Origin: Eledone cirrhosa
Taxonomy: Eukaryota
Length of the DNA stretch: 64,000 bases
Direction: 5' to 3'
Assembly: GCA_964016885.1 (NCBI GenBank)
Contig: OZ024757.1
Coordinates: forward strand, 33,170,001 to 33,234,000
Shown here in pieces: positions 14,156-51,677 of this stretch. Every line of letters begins with the position of its first letter. The stretch's first letter is position 1. The notes under the pieces were generated by a model. The model saw only the letters and a program-made list of their open reading frames with translations, had not been told where the DNA came from and searched no databases. The position numbers and the translations under genes were made by a program.

Positions 14156-14496
14156 TATATATATTTGAGCCACTCTTTCCACATAAAACAGAAATAACTT
14201 TCAAACACCAACCAGATGCGAGAAAAACCACACACCCTCCATCTCAATTCTACTTTTGAAAGGCATAAGAACTGTGAAACAAATAAATTTTCTTAAAAAG
14301 ACTCCAGTTGCATTTTCGATTTCTTTTCCTTATACTTTCACTTGTGTAGGACATCTCGTTTCTTTATTAAAAAAAACCTCATTTTCTTATATATATATAT
14401 ATATATATATTGATGATGATGATATATATATATATGTACTTCGTTTTTAAATTTGTTTGGCAAGCTTTCTTATCTGAAAATGTGTATGGAAACAGA

Positions 14497-14815
14497 TATT
14501 GTTATACTTTGGGAGGGTCATGCTGCCAATAAAAACACACCTGTTGGTTTTCACTTCAATTTATTATAAATTTCCAGTAGGTTGGTTCGATAACAAGATG
14601 GTGTAGGACAGAACAAAGGAGAGACAGAAAATAAAAACCCAGTCACTGAGGAGGTCACAGTATGTGTGACGAAAGAGCTTTGATAATATATAAACAACCT
14701 TTCGGTTATCGAATCAACCAACCAACCAACCGGAAATATATAATAAATTGAAGTGAAAACCAACAGATGCATGTGTTTTTATTGGCAGCATGACCCTCCC
14801 AAAATATAACAATAT
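14497..14815. repeat. Imperfect inverted repeat (~100-bp arms) with a hammerhead in the spacer
   Basis: gggagggtcatgctgccaataaaaacac pairs with gtgtttttattggcagcatgaccctccc, and ctgttggttttcacttcaatttatta also recurs as its reverse complement. Confidence 0.85.
14643..14683 (+). ncRNA. Minimal type I hammerhead motif
   Basis: TCA-CTGAGGA-G-GTCAC(AGTATGT)GTGAC-GAAA-GAGCTT-TGA. Confidence 0.7.
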
Positions 14816-18249: not shown

Positions 18250-18321
18250 TGACGTACATGGAAATCGAACCCACATCTTTGGTTATCCAGACCACTGTGC
18301 TACCATTACACCAACACATCA
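18250..18321 (-). pseudogene. 72-nt tRNA-like sequence, probably a pseudogene or SINE head, with GGA at the anticodon position
   Basis: Acceptor TGATGTG/TACGTCA, D arm GTG-TAATGGTAG-CAC, anticodon arm TGGT-CTGGATA-ACCA, T arm GTGGG-TTCGATT-TCCAT, and a T5 run just downstream. Confidence 0.6.
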
Positions 18322-28340: not shown

Positions 28341-29733
28341 TACAAGGGTGGGCTGAAAAGTTCATAGGCTGACTATGAAGGAGTGATGTAAGAGCTGTGA
28401 AATCTTGCATGCAGGGCCAGATTTATATACATACATTCACTGTAAGGTGGTTGTGTAGGTTTCATTACAAAAGGCACCCAGCCCATACTGTAAAGTGGTT
28501 GTGTAGCTGCCACAACAGAAAGCACCCAACCTACACAGCATACACTGTAAATATGGTTGGCATTAGGAAGGGCATCCAACTGAAGAAATCTAGCCAGAAA
28601 CAGTTCTATATGAGCAAGACACAGTCACCTGGCCCAACTTACCTCAAATGGGATAACCCGTCTAACCCATGCTAGCATGGAAAGGGAACGTTAAACGATG
28701 ATGACGATGATGCTATATGCACACACATGCAGGATACCCCCAAATACATGCCATACATAACTGTGTTTATTACATATTTGCTGACTATCAAAGCTGATGT
28801 TGCATGGAAAAGGAAAATGAAGAACATCCTTTACATGCAGTCAGACTAGATAATATGTAAACAGAAACCTTATTCAAACGGTGCAGAGTTTCAAACAAAA
28901 AATTCCTCACTGCTTCATCATGGCTGCCACAAAACATATTAACAATAACAATTATATTAGAGCTATTATCACAGCATGCTGTATATACAATACCACATGG
29001 CTACATGTGTATGTAATATCAGCCGTTAACATCAAAGATACAGGTAAGTGTGGTGTAGGGAGGGTCTGTTTAGATAAACTATAAATATAGCACATTAACC
29101 CTTTATTTTTTTAAACAACCGATGCATTACATTGACGTAAAAATAAACGGCAGATGCACAGGTTTCTAAAAATAGACACCTATAAAATTGTGCTAGTTTG
29201 ATATGATATATAAATATGTATGCATATGTGTGTGTATATATATATATATATATATAATTTATGGTGGATTAGCAGTATCGGAGGAGAGTCGGACACCATG
29301 CTTTGAAGCATAGAGTTACATCCCTTTATGATCTGAATTCAAATCCCGCCGAGGTTAACTTTGCCTTTCATCCTTACGAGGTCGATAAAATAAAGTAGCA
29401 GTAATCTACTGGGTAATTGCTGGCCTTGTGCCAAAAATAGAAACAATTAGGTTATATATATACATACATATGTATAAGTACATTGTATATTATTTTACAG
29501 GCATAAATAAATACATATCTATCTAGCTATCTACATATATATATATGTATGTATGTCAACTCCTTATTATATATATATATATATTATCTATAAGTACATT
29601 GTATATTATATTACAAGTATAAATATATATATGAATATAGACATAGAATATTCGAAAATATTCTGTATGTTTATAATAAACATTTTGAAGACCTAATCGC
29701 TATAGAATAGAATACGTCACGTATTACAATTAG

Positions 29734-29822
29734 ATTCTCGATAAAAGCAAGGGAAGTAATCTACGCGTTTCATTCTTGTTAGAAATCATCAGGACTACAT
29801 ATCCAGTGCTTTTATCGAGAAT
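29734..29822 (-). ncRNA. Extended type I hammerhead ribozyme, copy 1
   Basis: Reverse complement of 30665-30753. Confidence 0.88.
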
Positions 29823-30043
29823 GACACAGCTAGAGACTTATAGAATACTTAGCTGTGTACAGGAACTGGTTTGAAAGAGCGGTTGCCGGTCCGGCAGAAA
29901 TTAGAAATTGGAATAAATGCTCTGAAATAGCGATATATATGTGAATATAGACATAGAATATTCGAAAATATTCTGTATGTTTATAATAAACATTTTGAAG
30001 ACCTAATCGCTATAGAATAGAATACGTCACGTATTACAATTAG

Positions 30044-30132
30044 ATTCTCGATAAAAGCAAGGGAAGTAATCTACGCGTTTCATTCTTGTTAGAAATCATC
30101 AGGACTACATATCCAGTGCTTTTATCGAGAAT
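30044..30132 (-). ncRNA. Extended type I hammerhead ribozyme, copy 2
   Basis: Reverse complement of 30665-30753. Confidence 0.88.
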
Positions 30133-30353
30133 GACACAGCTAGAGACTTATAGAATACTTAGCTGTGTACAGGAACTGGTTTGAAAGAGCGGTTGCCGGT
30201 CCGGCAGAAATTAGAAATTGGAATAAATGCTCTGAAATAGCGATATATATGTGAATATAGACATAGAATATTCGAAAATATTCTGTATGTTTATAATAAA
30301 CATTTTGAAGACCTAATCGCTATAGAATAGAATACGTCACGTATTACAATTAG

Positions 30354-30442
30354 ATTCTCGATAAAAGCAAGGGAAGTAATCTACGCGTTTCATTCTTGTT
30401 AGAAATCATCAGGACTACATATCCAGTGCTTTTATCGAGAAT
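30354..30442 (-). ncRNA. Extended type I hammerhead ribozyme, copy 3
   Basis: Reverse complement of 30665-30753. Confidence 0.88.
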
Positions 30443-30664
30443 GACACAGCTAGAGACTTATAGAATACTTAGCTGTGTACAGGAACTGGTTTGAAAGAGC
30501 GGTTGCCGGTCCGGCAGAAATTAGAAATTGGAATAAATGCTCTGAAATAGCGATATATATGTGAATATAGACATAGAATATTCTAATTTCTGCCGGACCG
30601 GCAACCGCTCTTTCAAACCAGTTCCTGTACACAGCTAAGTATTCTATAAGTCTCTAGCTGTGTC

Positions 30665-30753
30665 ATTCTCGATAAAAGCACTGGATATGTAGTCCTGATG
30701 ATTTCTAACAAGAATGAAACGCGTAGATTACTTCCCTTGCTTTTATCGAGAAT
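30665..30753 (+). ncRNA. Extended type I hammerhead ribozyme, copy 4; predicted cleavage after GUA at 30725
   Basis: ATTCTCGATAAAAGCA-ctggatat-GTAGTC-CTGATGA-T-TTCT(AACA)AGAA-T-GAA-ACGCGT-A-GATTAC-ttccct-TGCTTTTATCGAGAAT. Confidence 0.9.
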
Positions 30754-30974
30754 CTAATTGTAATACGTGACGTATTCTATTCTATAGCGATTAGGTCTTC
30801 AAAATGTTTATTATAAACATACAGAATATTTTCGAATATTCTATGTCTATATTCACATATATATCGCTATTTCAGAGCATTTATTCCAATTTCTAATTTC
30901 TGCCGGACCGGCAACCGCTCTTTCAAACCAGTTCCTGTACACAGCTAAGTATTCTATAAGTCTCTAGCTGTGTC

Positions 30975-31063
30975 ATTCTCGATAAAAGCACTGGATATGT
31001 AGTCCTGATGATTTCTAACAAGAATGAAACGCGTAGATTACTTCCCTTGCTTTTATCGAGAAT
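30975..31063 (+). ncRNA. Extended type I hammerhead ribozyme, copy 5; predicted cleavage after 31035
   Basis: Identical to 30665-30753, offset by 310 bp. Confidence 0.9.
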
Positions 31064-33779
31064 CTAATTGTAATACGTGACGTATTCTATTCTATAGCGA
31101 TTAGGTCTTCAAAATGTTTATTATAAACATACAGAATATTTTCGAATATTCTATGTCTATATTCACATATATATCGCTATTTCAGAGCATTTATTCCAAT
31201 TTCAAATATATATATATTATTTATGGTATGGTATGGTTCCATAACTCCCGAAGGAATCATATAGGTGTTGTACTGACATACTCATACGTCATTTCTTGGA
31301 CATCCCTCTCCAGGCCTGAGTACAGCAGATTTCTTCCAGAGAAGGATAGAAAGGTGATAGGAAGGAAGTGAGAAAGAGATATAGAGGAAGAATCTCTCCC
31401 ACTGGTACTTTATTCTATCGACCTTGAAAGGATGAAAGGCAAAGTTGACCTTGGCAGGATTTGAACTCTGAGAGCAGAGAACGGGAATGAATACCACAAA
31501 GCATTTTATCCGACATTCCAACGACTCTGCCAATTCGCCGCCTATGTTATTTAACTTTACTTTTCATCCTTACAGGGTTGATAAAATAAAGTACCAGTAA
31601 TATACTGGTTAATTGCTGACCTTGTGCCAAAAGTAGAAACAATTATTATTTTATATAAATAATAAAAATCTGTATATTGTGACCATCTTGCCTGTTTGTA
31701 TACTTTTAGTGGTTTCAGTCATTGAACTGAGAGAGAGAGAGAGAGAGAAAGACTTGAGGGACAGCTAGGGGGGGGGGGGGGGGTTATAAAAGCAAGTTAT
31801 CTTATCCAGACAGATGGCAGCATGAGTGAAGTTTGTTAAGTTTGATAACTTTGTTTTCAGTTAATTCAGTTGTTCTCAAACCGTTTTCGCTTTTTTTCAC
31901 TCACAACTAAAAATATTTTGACGCCATTTTTACTTAAATTGGAAAATTTATTCAAAAGAGGTATTTATCCATATTAACATAGCATAAAATAAAAATACAT
32001 GTGGTGAATTGGCAGAGTCATTAGAACATCGGATAGAATGCTTTGTGGTATTCATTCCAGCTCTTTGCTCTCTAAGTTGAAATCCCGCAGAGATCAATTT
32101 TGTCTTTCAATAAAATATAGTACCAGTTAAATACTGGAGTTGATTTAATCAACTTCATCCTTCCCACAAAATTTTTTCTGGCCTTGTGCCTAAATTAGAA
32201 ATCAATCTTTCACCATAGTACAATAAAATAAATATGTATAAAAAGATTTGATAGACTCTTAGTCCCTGCAGATAAAAAAAAAATACCAGTATCTCTTTCT
32301 TACTTCCTCTCACTCTTCTCTGGAAGAAATGGATGTGTTCAGACATGGCGAGGAACTCTAAAAGGAGTTTTGGGTCTATGCATCATGATCATCATTATTG
32401 TCATTTTAATGTCTACTTTCCCTGCTAGCAAGGGTTGGACAGGTCTACATAGGCCAAATGGGTACAGAAGCGGGGCTGCTGACCTCCCAGATAGACTAAG
32501 GATTAGTTATCTTGCTTGTGTACAGTCTCACCTTCTACCAAGTGGCACCAGCACAAGAGAGATTGTCATAACTTTGACACAACTGAAGAGTCCTGCCAAA
32601 CCTTTGTTTGACAAGATTTCTACAACTAGATGCCTTTCCTATCACAAATACATATAAAATAGAAACATAAATAATTTTTTAAATGGAAGAGTTTGCCAAA
32701 CAAAGGGCTGGGAGGACCTCTCAGTCATGTTAAGGACATAACAATATCCATAATGTTGGTGATCTACACAATAAGTACAACCAGTACACTCTGTGAAGTG
32801 GTTGGTGATAGGAAGAGCATCCAGCCATAGAGATCTTGCCAAACAAAGAGTTGGGAGGACCCTCAGTTGTGTCAAAGACATGACAACTTCTCCTGTGCAC
32901 TTAATGGAACGCGAGATCATACATAAGTGAAACAAAGACCTCTTGACTTGTCTGGGAAATCATTAGTTCCACTTCAGTACCGACTTGGTCTATGTAGACC
33001 TGTCCAACTCTTGTTAACAAGGGAAAGTAAACGTTAAAATGACAATGATGATAGAAAAATGATTTGTACTTCCTACTTTAGTTAATAAATAGGGCAAAGT
33101 TATCAATGAGAAACGTGAGATTGGTGCTTTTTGGCAAAGTTTTCATTCTTAGTTTAATGGTTTTCAACTTTGACAGTTATGTATGAACTTTATTACGAAT
33201 TTCAATTTGTAATTTTTGTACAGTTTGAAGTAGAATCTTGCTCTTTTGCTAGGCATCTAATTACATCTCGCAATGCACCGCTGCACTGAGACACAGTTTT
33301 GGAACCACTGTGTTATAAGAACAGAAGGTGGGTGGATGGGGAAGTGGTGGTGGGAGAGGATATGACTATGGTAGGAGAGAAATTGGTTTATAAGAGCCCC
33401 TTTATTTGGCAACTATGCACATACATGTTATATACAAACATACATTATTTAGACACGTATATATATATATATATATATACTCACACACATACATTATATC
33501 TATATATACATACATACATACACACATACATTATATCTATATATGTATATATACATACACTATTTATATACATGTATATACATACACACATATATATATG
33601 AATATATATGTATATATACACTATTTATATATATATAAACACACACATTATATATAAATATATGAGAAAGAGAGAGAGAGAGAAAGATAGATACCAGCTT
33701 TCTTTGTAGAGGAATGCACATACACATATACACATAAATTCACACACACATACATATATACACAAACACCCACACATAC

Positions 33780-44171: not shown

Positions 44172-45452
44172 TCATCATCATCATCAACGTTTAACGTCCA
44201 TGTTCCACGCTTGCATGGGTTTGGACGGGGGTTTTCCCACTTGAGGCAAGAGTGATTGTCTTGCTCGCATAGGACTGTCTGGCGGGTTTTCTACAGCTGG
44301 ATGCCCTTCCTAACACCAACCACATTTACAGTGTGGGGCTGGGAGGTTTTTACCGTGTTGCCTACACGGCCACATTACAGCGTGGACTGTCTGGCGGGTT
44401 TTCTACAACTGGATGCCCTTCCTAACACCAACCACATTTACAGTGTGGGGCTGGGAGGTTTTTACCGTGTTGCCTACACGGCCACATTACAGCGTGGACT
44501 GTGTGTTTTTTTGTCGTGACACCTACACGATCTCATTTGTTTCGGCCTGGATGTTGTGTCACCAACATAACTTTACATTGAAAGGGGCGGTGTGGATGGG
44601 GTGGGGGTGGTGGGACGGGGGTGTATTTTGTTAGAGATGCCTATTGACTGTAGTAGGTTTTACTTTGTATTTAGGTAAGGCGGGTCTTCTCTATTACTGA
44701 GTACCGCCAAAGGTCTCGGTCCAGTGACATTGTCTTGGAGAGGTGTAAGTGTGTGAGGTCGGAATTTATCAGCTCGTCCCAGGTTTTTCTGGGTCTGCCT
44801 ACTCCGTGGCTACCGTCTATCTTTATTGCCCTGCACTTTGTTATACAGCTATCGTCTTTCATGCGCATCACGTGACCATACCAACGTAACCTTCTCTCGA
44901 GTAAACAACATCTGATCCCTCTTATTTCTAATTTTTTCCTTAGTTCGTTTATGCTTTGCCGTTCACGTATATTACTATTACACATCCAGTGGAGCATGCA
45001 AGCTTCGTTCCTCTCTAGTCTGCGTATATCCTCTGCACACAATGCCCAGGTCTCACTGCCATGCAACATTGCTGTTCGTATGCAGGCATCATACAACCTG
45101 CCTTTCATTTTTAGGGAGAACCCTTTAGCGGCTATTAGTGGTATAAGCTCTCTGAACTTTTTCCATCCAGTTCTGACTCTAGCTACTGTACTTTCAGAGC
45201 ACCCTCCCCCACTGCTGATTTTGTCACCCAGGTAACGGAAGCTGTCCACTATTTCTATAGAACCCTCTGTGCAGTTGAAAGAGCTAGTATTTTGTGGGCA
45301 CTTGCTGCTACTTATTGCACCAGAGCACCGGCCACATGTAAAATCTATGTTCTTAGTTAGCTTACCTGTGATCCCACTACATCTTTTATGCACCCATACT
45401 TTGCATTTGGGACACAAAATGGAGTTTCTACCTACGCCTTTCCTACACACTG
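44172..45452 (-). mobile_element. 5'-truncated RTE LINE: open C-terminal ORF (44671-45452), 3' UTR and (TGA)n tail
   Basis: PHD-like CRKG..CPKC..HKRC..CGRC, FRYLG, HGSETW, RRLRWYGHVMR and GRPRKTW. The 5' junction abuts (TA)n. Confidence 0.93.
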
Positions 45453-45477
45453 ATATATATATATATATATATATATT

Positions 45478-45875
45478 CAGTAGGCACCTCTTAACCGAAT
45501 ATACACCCCAATCCACTACCCCTACCCTATCCTTCCACTCCCACCAACACCACCCTCTCTCTATAAAGTTGGTACCACAACATCCAGTCCAAATAAATGA
45601 GATAATGAGATCGAGATCGTGTAGGTGTCACGAGAAAAAAACACACAGTCCACGTTGTAATGTGGCCGTGTAGGTAACACGGTAAAAACCTCCCAGTTCC
45701 ACACTGTAAATGTGGTTGGTGTTAGGAAGGGCATCCAGCCATAGAAAACCTGCCAGATAGTCCTATATGAGCGAGACATGGTCACCCAACCAACCTTGCC
45801 TCAAGTGGGACAACTCCCATCTAACCCAGGCTAGCGTGGAAGATGGACGTTAAAGAAAGATGATGATGATGATGA
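45478..45875 (+). mobile_element. RTE LINE 3' UTR fragment, head to head with the previous element
   Basis: Homologous to the reverse complement of 44172-44650 and ends in (TGA)n. Confidence 0.8.
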
Positions 45876-48338: not shown

Positions 48339-48412
<74 letters not shown>

Positions 48413-48527
48413 TTTTCAAGTCTGGTACTTATTTTATCAAACCTCTGTTTTGTTGAACAACCAAGTTGCATGAGGTAAATAAACACACACAGAGACATAC
48501 ATACACACACATATATATATATATACA

Positions 48528-51353
48528 CATTTATGCTTTGTCGGTCGCGTATATTACTATTACACATCCATCGGAGCATGCAGGCTTCGTTTCTCTCTAA
48601 TCTACGTAAGTCTTCCACCCTCAGCGCCCAGGTCTCACTACCATGTAACATCGCTGTTCGGATACACGCATCATACAGTCTGCCTTTCATTTTGAAGGAG
48701 AAGCCTTTTGCAGCTAGCAGTGGTAGTAGTTCCCTAAACTTCTTCCATCCCGTTCTTACCCTAGTTATTGTACTTTCTGAACACCCACCTCCGCTGCTAA
48801 TTCGGTCACCTAGGTAGCAGAAGCTGTCTACTGTCTCTACAGAGCCCTCCCAGAGATTGGTGGTACTTGTTTCCTGTGGCTGTTTGCTGCTTGCTGTCCC
48901 AGCACAGCTGCTGCATGTGAAGCCTACATTCTTAATTAAGCTTCCTGAGATCCTGCTACATCTCTTGTGTACCCATTGTTTGCATTTGGGGCAGAGAATG
49001 GAGTTCCTACCTACACCTTTCCTACATACTGAGCAAGGCCATTTCCCTGAGGGGATCTGGGTTCTGTTTTCTCGTCTACTTACATGGACCTTAGTCTTTG
49101 TCATGTTGACTTTGAGACCCTTTCTTTCTAGTCCCTGCTTCCAAGTTTGGAATTTCTTCTCTAGTTCTACCATAGATTCAGCTATAAGTGCGAGGTCATC
49201 AGCATACAGGAGTTCCCATGGGCATCCGGTCTTAAATTCCTCCGTTATTGCCTGCAGGACTATGATGAACAGGAGAGGGCTAAGAACAGAGCCCTGGTGG
49301 ACACCAACCTGTACGCTAAATTCCTCGCTATACTCATTGCTAATCCTAACTTTGCTGACTGCTCCCCTATACATGGCTTGTACAGCTTTCACAAGCCATT
49401 CATCTACTCCTAGTTTTCTAAGAGCCCACCAGATTACAGCACGTGGAACTCTGTCAAAGGCTTTCTCGAGATCGACAATGCCAGGTAGGGTGGCTTACTT
49501 TTAGCTAGGTACTTTTCCTGTAACTGCCTCACAAGGAAGAGGGCATCAGTGGTGCCTCTTCCTGGTACAAACCCAAATTGCATCTCATCTAGTTTCACCC
49601 AGTCCCTAATCAACTGTGCTATAATTCTTTCTGTTACTTTCATGACCTGGTCCATCAGCTTTATACCTCTATAGTTTCCTCTATTGAGTGCATCACCTTT
49701 ACCTCTGTAGCAGTTGACAATGATGCTACTGCACCAATCTTTTGGTATGACACCTTCTAGTATTACCTGGTTAACAATACGTGTGGTTATAGTGTGACCT
49801 ACAAACCCAGATGCCTTCAGCATCTCGGCAGCTATACCCGATGGACCGGTTGCCTTCCCCATCTTCATATCTTTGATTGCCTTACTTACTACGATGCTGC
49901 TGACTTGTACTGCTGGCCCCTCTATAGGGTCTACTTGGGGTAGGGTCTCTTCTTCCCATGCATTCTCCTCATTTAGTAATCTATCATAATGACTCTTCCA
50001 TGCATCTTTCTTCTCAGCACTTGTGAGGGCAAGCTCACCTTTATCATTCCGGATACACTTCTCTCCAATGACATCACAATTCTCTCTGACACACTGCCTC
50101 GCAATCTTGAACACCTCCTGTTTCTGGTCCTCTCGTTGCAAAACATGCTTGAATTTTCTATCCTCTGCTTCCCTCCTAGCTAAGTATACTTGTCGTCTAG
50201 CTTCCCTCTTGGTCTCTATGTAATGTACCCTGCTCCCCCCGTTCTTCCATTCTTTCCATGCCTGTCTCTTGGCCTTAACTGCCTCATCTACCTTATTGTT
50301 CCACCACCAAGTCACTCTCCTCCTGCTTGTGGTCTTACTCCAGCCACAGACCTCATCCGTCGCCTCCAGTAAGTTATTTTTTAGGAACTGCCAGTGCTCT
50401 TCTACATTGAATGTCTCTATCTGTTCTTCTCTACTGTCATAGGCGTTGAGTAAAATATCTTTAAATCTGTTACTGGCTGAGGGGTCTTTCAGCTTCCAGA
50501 TCTTTCTTCTCCAGGTTTGCCTCTGTTTCCAGGTTCATCTAGTTCTGACTGTGAGGTCGCTGACAACTAAGCTATGTTGGGAGGTACATTCCTCACTAGG
50601 GAAGGCTTTGTGTTTACGACCGTCCATCTGTCACGTCCTCTGATGAGGATAAAATCTATCTGACTAGAATGCTCCCCTGATCTATAGGTGATCAGGTGGT
50701 TGTCAGGTTTTTTGAAGTTTGTATTACATATCGACATCTCATTGGCGTCGCAGAATTCTAGAAGTCTGAATCCTTCTTCATTTCTTGTGCCAACCCCATG
50801 GATTCTATTGAAGCCGTCACAGTGTTTACCTACGTGTCCGTTAAAATCTCCTGCGATGATTAGGAAGTCATTGTCATTTGTTAGAGCAGTAGTGTGGATT
50901 AGGGACTCGTAAAATCTATCCTTAAGTTCGTCTGGCAACCCCGATTGGGGTGCGTAGGCTGATATTATTGTGGTAATTGTTTTATTCAGGACTAGTCTGA
51001 GTTTAATGATTCTTGCATTTACCCTGTACACTGAGATTACTTTATCTACCCACTTGTCAGCTAGTAGTATACCTACACCACCCATCCCATCGTCATTTCC
51101 CACCCAGAAAAATTTGTAGCACTGACTTTTTCCTACAAGGACTCTAGCAGACTCTCCTCTCCATCTAGTCTCTTGCACACAGCATACATCAATTTCCTTT
51201 CGCTCTAGCATTTCTACGATTTCTCCTGCTCTTCCTTTCATCGTGCTTACATTGATGGTACCAACTCGGAGTTTGGGGCATTTGTCGATTTTTGCAAGGG
51301 TGTGTGTGTGCATCCTCTCTCTGGATTGGGGCTTCACATGGGTGCTTGGTAGC

Positions 51354-51355
<2 letters not shown>
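48528..51355 (-). mobile_element. Near-full-length RTE-clade LINE (APE, RT, PHD finger), frameshifted and 3'-truncated
   Basis: ORF pieces 50567-51355 (APE: GTINV, QET, YAPQ, GDFN, QIDFIL), 49434-50315 (GKATGPSG, NYRGIKL, QFGF) and 48528-49392 (GVHQGSVLSP, YADD, FCYLG). Both ends are in (TA)n-rich sequence. Confidence 0.95.
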
Positions 51356-51390
<35 letters not shown>

Positions 51391-51677
51391 AGTATTTATG
51401 TGTGTGAATGTTTGGAGTATATACAGTGCAAAGCCCCAGCGGACTACAAATCAAGCTAGTTCTTAAACCATGATGAGATGTAGGGTGGGTATGGTGGGGA
51501 GGTAAAATCACAACAACAACAACAGCTACGACAATGACAAAAGCAATAACAGCAACAACAACAATAAATCATAGACAATATTGATTGCAACATGTCAGCT
51601 GCTGCTATGACAACAATAGAGACACCAATATCATAACTATCTTCAACACAACCCAAGCTGGTACCATATATATATAA

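Follow-up and report, generated by a model that had tools for sequence, protein, structure and literature searches.

A palindromic hammerhead array in the octopod Eledone cirrhosa is one insertion of a young retrozyme family with a Penelope-like integration footprint

Retrozymes and the idea that Penelope-like elements (PLEs) mobilize them are already known, also from passages of PMC7761336. Where the accounts of animal retrozymes turn to mobility, the reverse transcriptase (RT) that moves them is named only as a candidate, and the circular template is hypothetical (parts of PMC7229834 and bioRxiv 10.64898/2026.07.22.740005). Here we analyze a stretch of 64,000 nt from Eledone cirrhosa (GCA_964016885.1, contig OZ024757.1, here C18, positions 33,170,001 to 33,234,000; "the window"), part of a 3.0-Gb genome. 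At 29632-31203 it contains a palindromic array of 310-bp units, each with a hammerhead ribozyme, which we refer to as the window array.

The sections on insertion structure in PMC8557442 describe PLE insertions with an inverted 5'-truncated copy, a tail of 30-40 bp that is often confined to one end, and targets in (TA)n, and name the origin of the inverted and tail structures as an open task; a head-to-head form with a 31-bp tail is described in part of PMC3846280. According to the biochemical sections of PMC11167929, a PLE protein acts in vitro on both target strands, nicking and extending each, its RT begins at two adjacent internal sites of the RNA whose spacing equals the tail, and the protein is predicted to be dimeric, with no strand difference in the start site. 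We propose, with a probability of roughly 0.7, that the window array belongs to a young non-coding retrozyme whose 310-nt RNA is predicted to cut itself and circularize, and which borrows the RT of a PLE that primes from both strands of (TA)n tracts.

Results

A dispersed family without proteins

The window array consists of five identical units in two arms set head to head, with three hammerheads on the minus strand and two on the plus strand. Both arms match the monomer at 30726-31035 without a mismatch (position 1 of the monomer is the base right after the GUA cleavage site), and Tandem Repeats Finder and a repeat finder concur on the array. It has no open reading frame (ORF) of 150 amino acids, which bears out an earlier sequence-only reading of the window as three tandem and two inverted, identical, non-coding units.

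A 43-nt core of the unit has 4,177 exact matches in the genome and its reversed control has none; because of this, and of a circular fold with a z-score of -4.1 (see below), the hammerhead repeat cannot be put down to chance. With a pattern that admits the common variants we obtained 17,163 hammerhead matches genome-wide (8,688 on the plus and 8,475 on the minus strand), and the units total ~5.3 Mb, or 0.18% of the genome. Counting junctions of a unit end with (TA)n gave 973 for end B, which lies at position 165, and 671 for end A, at position 130; a capture-recapture estimate on contig C1 gives ~1,600-1,800 insertions. Borders between identical units keep an exact 310-nt phase, with no bases gained or lost at the cut site. 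Apart from the window array, all arrays read in detail come from contig C1, among the matches listed: 72 stretches were fetched, in which 64 complete two-armed insertions were counted, in a sample that leans to long arrays, picked on purpose. No ORF was found within or between the arms in the 72 stretches. The window array is one insertion of a young, dispersed, protein-free mobile family, and the non-coding tandem type I hammerhead repeat of the sequence-only reading is supported.

Two arms with fixed, unequal ends

Insertions of the family consist of two divergent multimers in (TA)n, whose arms stop at different distances past the cleavage site, ~130 nt in one and ~165 nt in the other. We compiled independent lists of A and B ends for the first 289 Mb of contig C1 (75 A and 100 B ends). 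All 43 inward-facing end pairs were A+B, 22 one way and 21 the other way, with neither A+A nor B+B, an outcome with a probability of 5e-14 if ends were independent. Among the complete two-armed insertions the rule holds for 62/64, or for 44/46 once the 18 that had been chosen as pairs are removed; the exceptions are L084, which combines an A end with position 290, and L102, whose left arm leaves the fetched stretch. A ends fall at positions 118-139 (44 at 130, 12 at 139) and B ends at 157-172 (42 at 165). L043, with four segments and a duplicated junction, was left out of the end count, and several arrays run off their stretch or into a gap. (TA)n longer than 10 nt lies on both flanks in 48 of the 64 insertions; most loci were found via a TA-anchored pattern, and the 11 complete insertions found through the ribozyme likewise end in TA-rich sequence. 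Short-read contigs of runs X2 and X5 show loose TA ends at positions 139, 167, and 170.

The inner ends are distributed uniformly across the unit (chi-square p 0.51). Where the arms meet, we saw an overlap of 1-8 nt in 34 insertions, a blunt joint in nine, and extra bases in 21; microhomology of at least 2 nt occurs in 27/43 junctions without inserted bases, versus 18.8% in simulations. In this long-leaning sample 114/124 arms exceed one unit and 53 exceed five, up to a maximum of 22.9 units. B arms are longer than A arms (median 1,726 versus 1,040 bp, p 0.017), a difference on which we do not rely because long arrays were picked deliberately. One inter-arm junction (L036:2599-2870) has captured 272 bp of unrelated, GC-richer sequence.

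The palindromic layout reported by the sequence-only reading is real and is, moreover, the regular insertion form of a family with fixed, unequal ends rather than an accident of the locus. The left arm of the window array (29632..30583, 952 bp, 3.07 units, ribozyme sense minus) runs from an outer end at position 130 (end A) to an inner end at position 109. It carries hammerhead 1 (29734..29822, distal stem I to distal stem I), hammerhead 2 (30044..30132), and hammerhead 3 (30354..30442), all on the minus strand, with predicted cuts at 29762/29761, 30072/30071, and 30382/30381. The right arm (30581..31203, 623 bp, 2.01 units, ribozyme sense plus) has its inner end at position 166 and its outer end at position 168 (end B), and holds hammerheads 4 (30665..30753) and 5 (30975..31063), both on the plus strand, with predicted cuts after the GUA triplets at 30723-30725 and 31033-31035. 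At the head-to-head junction (30581..30583) the arms have a 3-nt microhomology, TTC/GAA, in common. A 38-nt "tail" between end A (position 130) and end B, at 31166..31203 on the plus strand, is found at the right end only. The array is flanked by an 11-bp target-site duplication, AAATATATATA, itself a short TA tract (left copy 29621..29631, right copy 31204..31214, both plus strand), the best match at this locus between a suffix of the left flank and a prefix of the right flank.

Mostly one unit variant per insertion

Across the 64 loci, 541 of 626 full units are equal to the majority unit of their locus. There are 28 such majority variants, 20 of them seen once, and in 42 of 47 loci both arms have the same one; of the five mismatching loci, L034 and L081 hold two separate arrays, and L039, L073, and L095 differ between their arms. 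Since a variant can fill a whole array on both arms, a stage with a single unit is needed, and the shared variants point to a single monomer as template, as judged from the sequences. The simplest reading of same-variant arms would be repeated copying of one circle.

A hammerhead kept through transmission

All five units of the window array have the CUGAUGA and GAAA core, a 6-bp proximal stem I (one G.U pair), an internal loop, a perfect 16-bp distal stem I, a stem III formed by the palindrome ACGCGU, and the GUA cleavage site, and in this the type I hammerhead of the sequence-only reading was correct in every copy. Its 4-bp stem II is also there, but the reading had overlooked a U.U mismatch beneath the four pairs, at 10.1:11.1. 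The further hairpins that it listed exist, although their letters came from the antisense strand and two have 1-nt loops as written; the one given as GAATATT-CGAA-AATATTC reads GAAUAUU-UUCG-AAUAUUC in RNA sense. This hairpin (30824..30841, plus strand) lies directly upstream of end A, is retained in sister families with other letters (GCAA and GCCA loops), and is a candidate RT recognition element. A palindromic helix III permits folding as a dimer, as stated in part of PMC4209133; two of the three supplements of that paper contain no cephalopod terms.

The monomer from cut site to cut site (30726..31035, plus strand, 310 nt, 34% GC) is predicted from its fold to be a circular RNA. Folded in circular mode, as had been suggested, it reaches -67.8 kcal/mol, with a z-score of -4.1 relative to 60 dinucleotide shuffles. 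The suggested comparison with Rfam Hammerhead_1 went the other way. No hammerhead was reported at the gathering level; below it, Hammerhead_HH9 was placed on all five copies at 19.2 bits (E 0.25, gathering 52), and Hammerhead_1 was not listed. Because the Rfam scores stay under gathering, the hammerhead call rests on motif, fold, and covariation. Assembled contigs of runs X1, X3, X4, and X6 include one 340-nt contig each (310 + 30), which says nothing on expression because an RNA circle and a tandem DNA array would both yield it.

We examined substitutions in 50 arrays that had not been chosen on the ribozyme (514 units; the variant classes exclude L081, which has two arrays). Array-wide substitutions in the stems and core keep pairing in 6/6 cases, plus one insertion in stem I, and one of them converts the U.U at 10.1:11.1 to A-U. 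Sporadic substitutions, which may include assembly errors, keep pairing in 2/10, plus one insertion (Fisher p 0.007 for array-wide versus sporadic); sporadic differences amount to 0.033% per base. These comparisons show a ribozyme fold that, as far as sequence can tell, is under selection at transmission.

Older relatives of the family retain the same architecture. One sister family, with units of 318-324 bp and 3,072 exact 20-mer matches, is 65-77% alike to the 310-bp family; its copies (L149:1501-1818, L159:1687-2008, L133-L167, on C1) are two-armed with ends at homologous places, and mostly carry U3-A8 hammerheads with a 12-nt palindromic stem III. A third, older sister family (L122:200-480, L238-L267), with copies 87-92% alike to the query and ends placed likewise, is mostly about one unit long and includes both C3-G8 and U3-A8 cores; it documents successive waves of one lineage. 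The sister hammerheads differ in sequence, with C3-G8 and U3-A8 interchanging, and keep the long distal stem, the palindromic stem III, and GUC. In an alignment of the window's family with a sister (4 + 14 sequences), pairing cells make up 96.4%, and in 14 of the 23 pairs both partners have changed, counts that represent few events because the rows are related; 0/500 shuffles reach this level of pairing, and slid controls give 27-50%.

Penelope-like elements of the same genome

The family has structural features of a PLE client: an inverted 5'-truncated partner head to head, a tail at one end (modes 130 and 165), and an AT-rich or (TA)n target. The ~35-nt offset of the ends with the inverted partner is the published PLE tail. 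This genome also has autonomous PLEs, and their insertions in (TA)n have two such ends as well. In an 881-aa (amino acid) family, with RT and GIY-YIG domains in Pfam, the tail is ~36-38 nt. Pfam also recognizes RT and GIY-YIG in a young 784-aa family, whose two ends lie 124 and 164 nt past its cut site and whose U3-A8 core is like that of the sister families (22/26 nt, E 0.14); by spacing and core type alone this family is the best candidate for a partner. A 1,217-aa PLE-like family has no Pfam hit and shows the two-end pattern in (TA)n. The PLEs examined carry minimal hammerheads, whereas the 310-bp unit carries a long canonical one.

The sequence-only reading had allowed that the unit might occur only at the termini of autonomous PLEs; no fetched array recurrently holds or abuts a PLE ORF. 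An autonomous PLE identity was rejected, as no ORF with RT and GIY-YIG is bounded by the repeat in the stretches read. A faint likeness of the tail to that of the 881-aa family was dropped because it scored below all shuffles. The reinsertion as multimers by a Penelope-like RT that the same reading had inferred is supported by genome-wide data, namely PLE-type ends and multimeric arms, which show or imply it.

Further observations concern PLE-related sequences. Another short element (L063:770-1095, L140, L147, L188:8250-8480) is non-coding, two-armed, inserted in (TA)n, and equipped with a minimal U3-A8 hammerhead. It shares homology with the terminus of the 784-aa PLE, 78% over 65 nt (E 7e-12), and the respective ends agree at 66% over 62 nt; on sequence similarity, the two are likely a client-partner pair. 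A young PLE family at L232:4799-8448 (C5) has many near-identical copies, with overlapping 455- and 784-aa frames in those read; GCAA replaces GAAA in its hammerhead, which is perhaps inactive. The young 1,217-aa family (L188:4021-7671, C1) has an Asn-rich insert, a minimal hammerhead, and many intact copies in tandems and inversions; such inserts have been reported in rotifer PLEs (passages of PMC3846280). A hammerhead with a very long stem II, at L063:6300-6440, L036, and L046, lies at the 3' end of the P0003 PLE family.

A proposed mechanism and its alternatives

We suggest the following course of events. Transcripts of an array would be cut at GUA, either as monomers or through the dimer fold of ACGCGU, a step consistent with the observed fold and the selection on it. 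The monomer would then be closed to a circle by a host RtcB-type ligase, on the model of Cervera and de la Peña (2020). A PLE protein bearing an endonuclease would nick each strand of a TA tract, at sites 11 bp apart in the window array, in keeping with the target and duplication seen. Priming would occur at site A (~130-139) from one nick and at site B (~165-172) from the second, with each site used once per insertion, which is the pattern that the ends display. Both cDNAs would travel repeatedly around the same template and stop at random, producing two multimeric arms of the same variant, as observed; their 3' ends would finally anneal over 0-8 nt, with fill-in, to give the head-to-head junction and its microhomology, in an order that we presume. 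Whether the ~1,700 insertions record such double-primed rolling-circle reverse transcription, with a dimeric PLE protein starting two cDNAs 35 nt apart on one circle, we regard as an even bet.

The same two-ended PLE integration could proceed on a linear RNA with no circle, either a monomer copied with template jumps or an uncut multimer. Template jumping is known of such RTs. In the assays described in part of PMC11167929, the anole PLE protein used unprocessed, uncleaved linear RNA in vitro, and hammerhead mutants inserted normally, so that the ribozyme was dispensable. An uncut multimer would, however, pass on the unit differences of its source, yet 20 variants seen once fill whole arrays on both arms. 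Selection on the fold means that the ribozyme fold matters, without telling a circle from a linear monomer, and we consider a linear template unlikely. Slightly less likely again is a satellite-like history, in which short two-armed PLE-type insertions later grew by unequal exchange or slippage and their arms were homogenized by conversion. Local amplification has been proposed by Li et al. (in part of bioRxiv 10.64898/2026.07.22.740005), copies of the older sister families mostly comprise one to two units, and variants recur in scattered units at L065, L079 (linked variants in four scattered units), and L092. Such growth would have had to leave sporadic differences of just 0.033% per base, yet nearly all arms in the long-leaning sample (114/124) exceed one unit and 53 exceed five; each arm would have to start with more than one unit, and slow growth would predict the reverse of what is seen, arrays that are longer in the young family than in its older sisters.

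That the unit is the pseudo-long terminal repeat (pLTR) of an autonomous PLE, the arrays being its 5'-truncated remnants, would fit a unit that has every PLE end feature and the PLE ORFs lying within a few kilobases of several arrays, and of the 3-Gb genome only ~1.1 Mb and a further 30 small loci were read. We consider it very improbable: the 72 stretches hold no ORF between or inside the arms, both outer ends enter (TA)n, the PLE family to which the neighboring ORFs belong varies from locus to locus, the only matches to a shared-region profile across 207 loci (1.12 Mb) were the three sister families, and the long canonical hammerhead of the unit contrasts with the minimal ones of the PLEs examined. 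To a fold-back artifact of long-read sequencing or assembly, finally, we give almost no credence. The inverted repeats are perfect, the units identical, and runs X2 and X5 may derive from the source sample; but 43/43 mixed fixed ends, unequal arms, locus-specific junctions, and a target duplication are unlike fold-back reads, and the short-read contigs of X2 and X5 show the loose TA ends given above.

Besides the recurrent scattered variants, the use of linear RNA in vitro, and the few covariation events, a number of observations weigh against a borrowed PLE enzyme acting on a self-cutting circle. Four fetched insertions are single-armed (L037, L074, L086, L094). Informative target duplications were seen in 4/64 insertions (shuffled pairs, mean 1.3, maximum 3), few being readable because they lie inside (TA)n. 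The arms of L039, L073, and L095 carry different majority variants, and at L073 a variant is confined to one arm; scattered or one-arm variants therefore imply some local expansion, or a change of template or more than one template. In isolation, the motif has a predicted minimum-energy fold that differs from the active one (stem I forms, the core mispairs), and the window variant combines the U.U at 10.1:11.1 with a 2-bp stem III; an axolotl hammerhead with U.U cleaved only 22% as a monomer (passages of PMC7229834), and 8/9 predicted Xenopus retrozyme dimers stayed uncut in vitro (part of bioRxiv 10.64898/2026.07.22.740005). The ends of four PLE families (881-aa, 1,217-aa, 784-aa, and P0003) have no significant similarity to positions 60-240, the best local alignments being matched by 9/300 shuffles for a 60-nt AT-rich piece of P0003 and by 58/300 for the 784-aa family, and no PLE partner with a homologous end was found among the sampled families.

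Other features of the window

The array lies between copies of a dispersed repeat of high copy number, at 31210-31660 and 29260-29450 (89% over 95 nt; very deep in run X2), and the repeats on its flanks look octopod-like. A TA tract at 14300-14700 holds a cluster that includes the end of a short two-armed minimal-hammerhead element, as at L063:770-1095, and an inverted end fragment of a PLE related to the 1,217-aa family (14441-14533, 61% over 31 amino acids), with a minimal hammerhead-like motif near 14650-14685 (plus strand) beside it. On the minus strand, fragments of a long interspersed nuclear element at 44671-45627 and 48409-51568, which we take to be RTE-like, contain endonuclease and RT motifs in several frames, and a transfer RNA-like match at 18250-18320 (45.1 bits) is possibly the head of a short interspersed nuclear element.

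Discussion

In the literature, in a search that left Repbase, Dfam, and the supplement of PMC7229834 outside, we found no retrozyme with regular two-armed insertions, a strict A+B rule, and arms of the same variant. The family joins the question of what moves retrozymes to that of how PLE insertions acquire their tail and inversion, both of which it displays on arms whose variants point to a single monomer template. The strict pairing of one A with one B is absent from the in vitro work, in which the start site showed no strand difference (relevant sections of PMC11167929). As a short, young family of ~17,000 units beside intact young PLEs, it brings together what a direct test would require: a template of 310 nt, a target in (TA)n, and candidate enzymes. 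If double-primed rolling-circle copying is true, retrozyme circles would be templates in vivo with PLEs as their movers, and the tail and inversion of PLEs would stem from an obligate use of one A and one B start site.

In sum, the window family has the testable features of a non-LTR retrozyme (LTR, long terminal repeat) together with the structural features of a PLE client, and it is not an autonomous PLE. With the metazoan non-LTR retrozymes of coral, mussel, and axolotl, as characterized in parts of PMC7229834, it shares tandem units of 150-450 bp with GC below 50%, a type I hammerhead in each unit, thousands of copies, a target duplication longer than 4 bp (11 bp here), and the lack of an LTR, primer-binding site, polypurine tract, or ORF; the U.U of the window unit recurs in axolotl HHR_Amex2, where it is placed at the base of helix II. 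The parts of that paper covering the text describe no two-armed form, fixed ends, tail, or (TA)n targeting; RNA circles were demonstrated there, whereas here the circle is predicted from DNA. The vertebrate retrozymes of bioRxiv 10.64898/2026.07.22.740005, in the portions concerned, likewise have tandem hammerhead units of ~300 bp, and the same conclusion of PLE mobilization was reached for them, resting on co-occurrence and pLTR homology, with the mechanism called unresolved. The window family differs in lacking a found partner homology among the sampled PLEs and in bearing the PLE-type integration footprint itself.

Chlamys elements such as MRC1 (passages of PMC8557442) are also non-autonomous PLE clients with multicopy head-to-tail insertions, but belong to green algae, resemble their partner at the 3' end, and have no canonical hammerhead in those passages. 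With the endonuclease-bearing PLEs Penelope/Poseidon, Neptune, and Naiad, as treated in parts of PMC8557442, PMC3846280, and PMC11167929, the family has in common an inverted 5'-truncated partner placed head to head, two start sites with a tail of 30-40 bp at one end, a hammerhead upstream of the ends, and targets that are AT-rich or (TA)n. Unlike them, it has no RT-endonuclease ORF, its arms are multimers of one short unit, and its hammerhead is full-length, with a 16-bp distal stem, where that of the PLEs is minimal. In L1 twin priming, two target 3' ends prime and yield a divergent inversion with microhomology, the second primer lying at a variable internal site and each arm being shorter than one unit; in the window family, by contrast, the distance between the two start sites is a constant 35 nt and each arm is a multimer.

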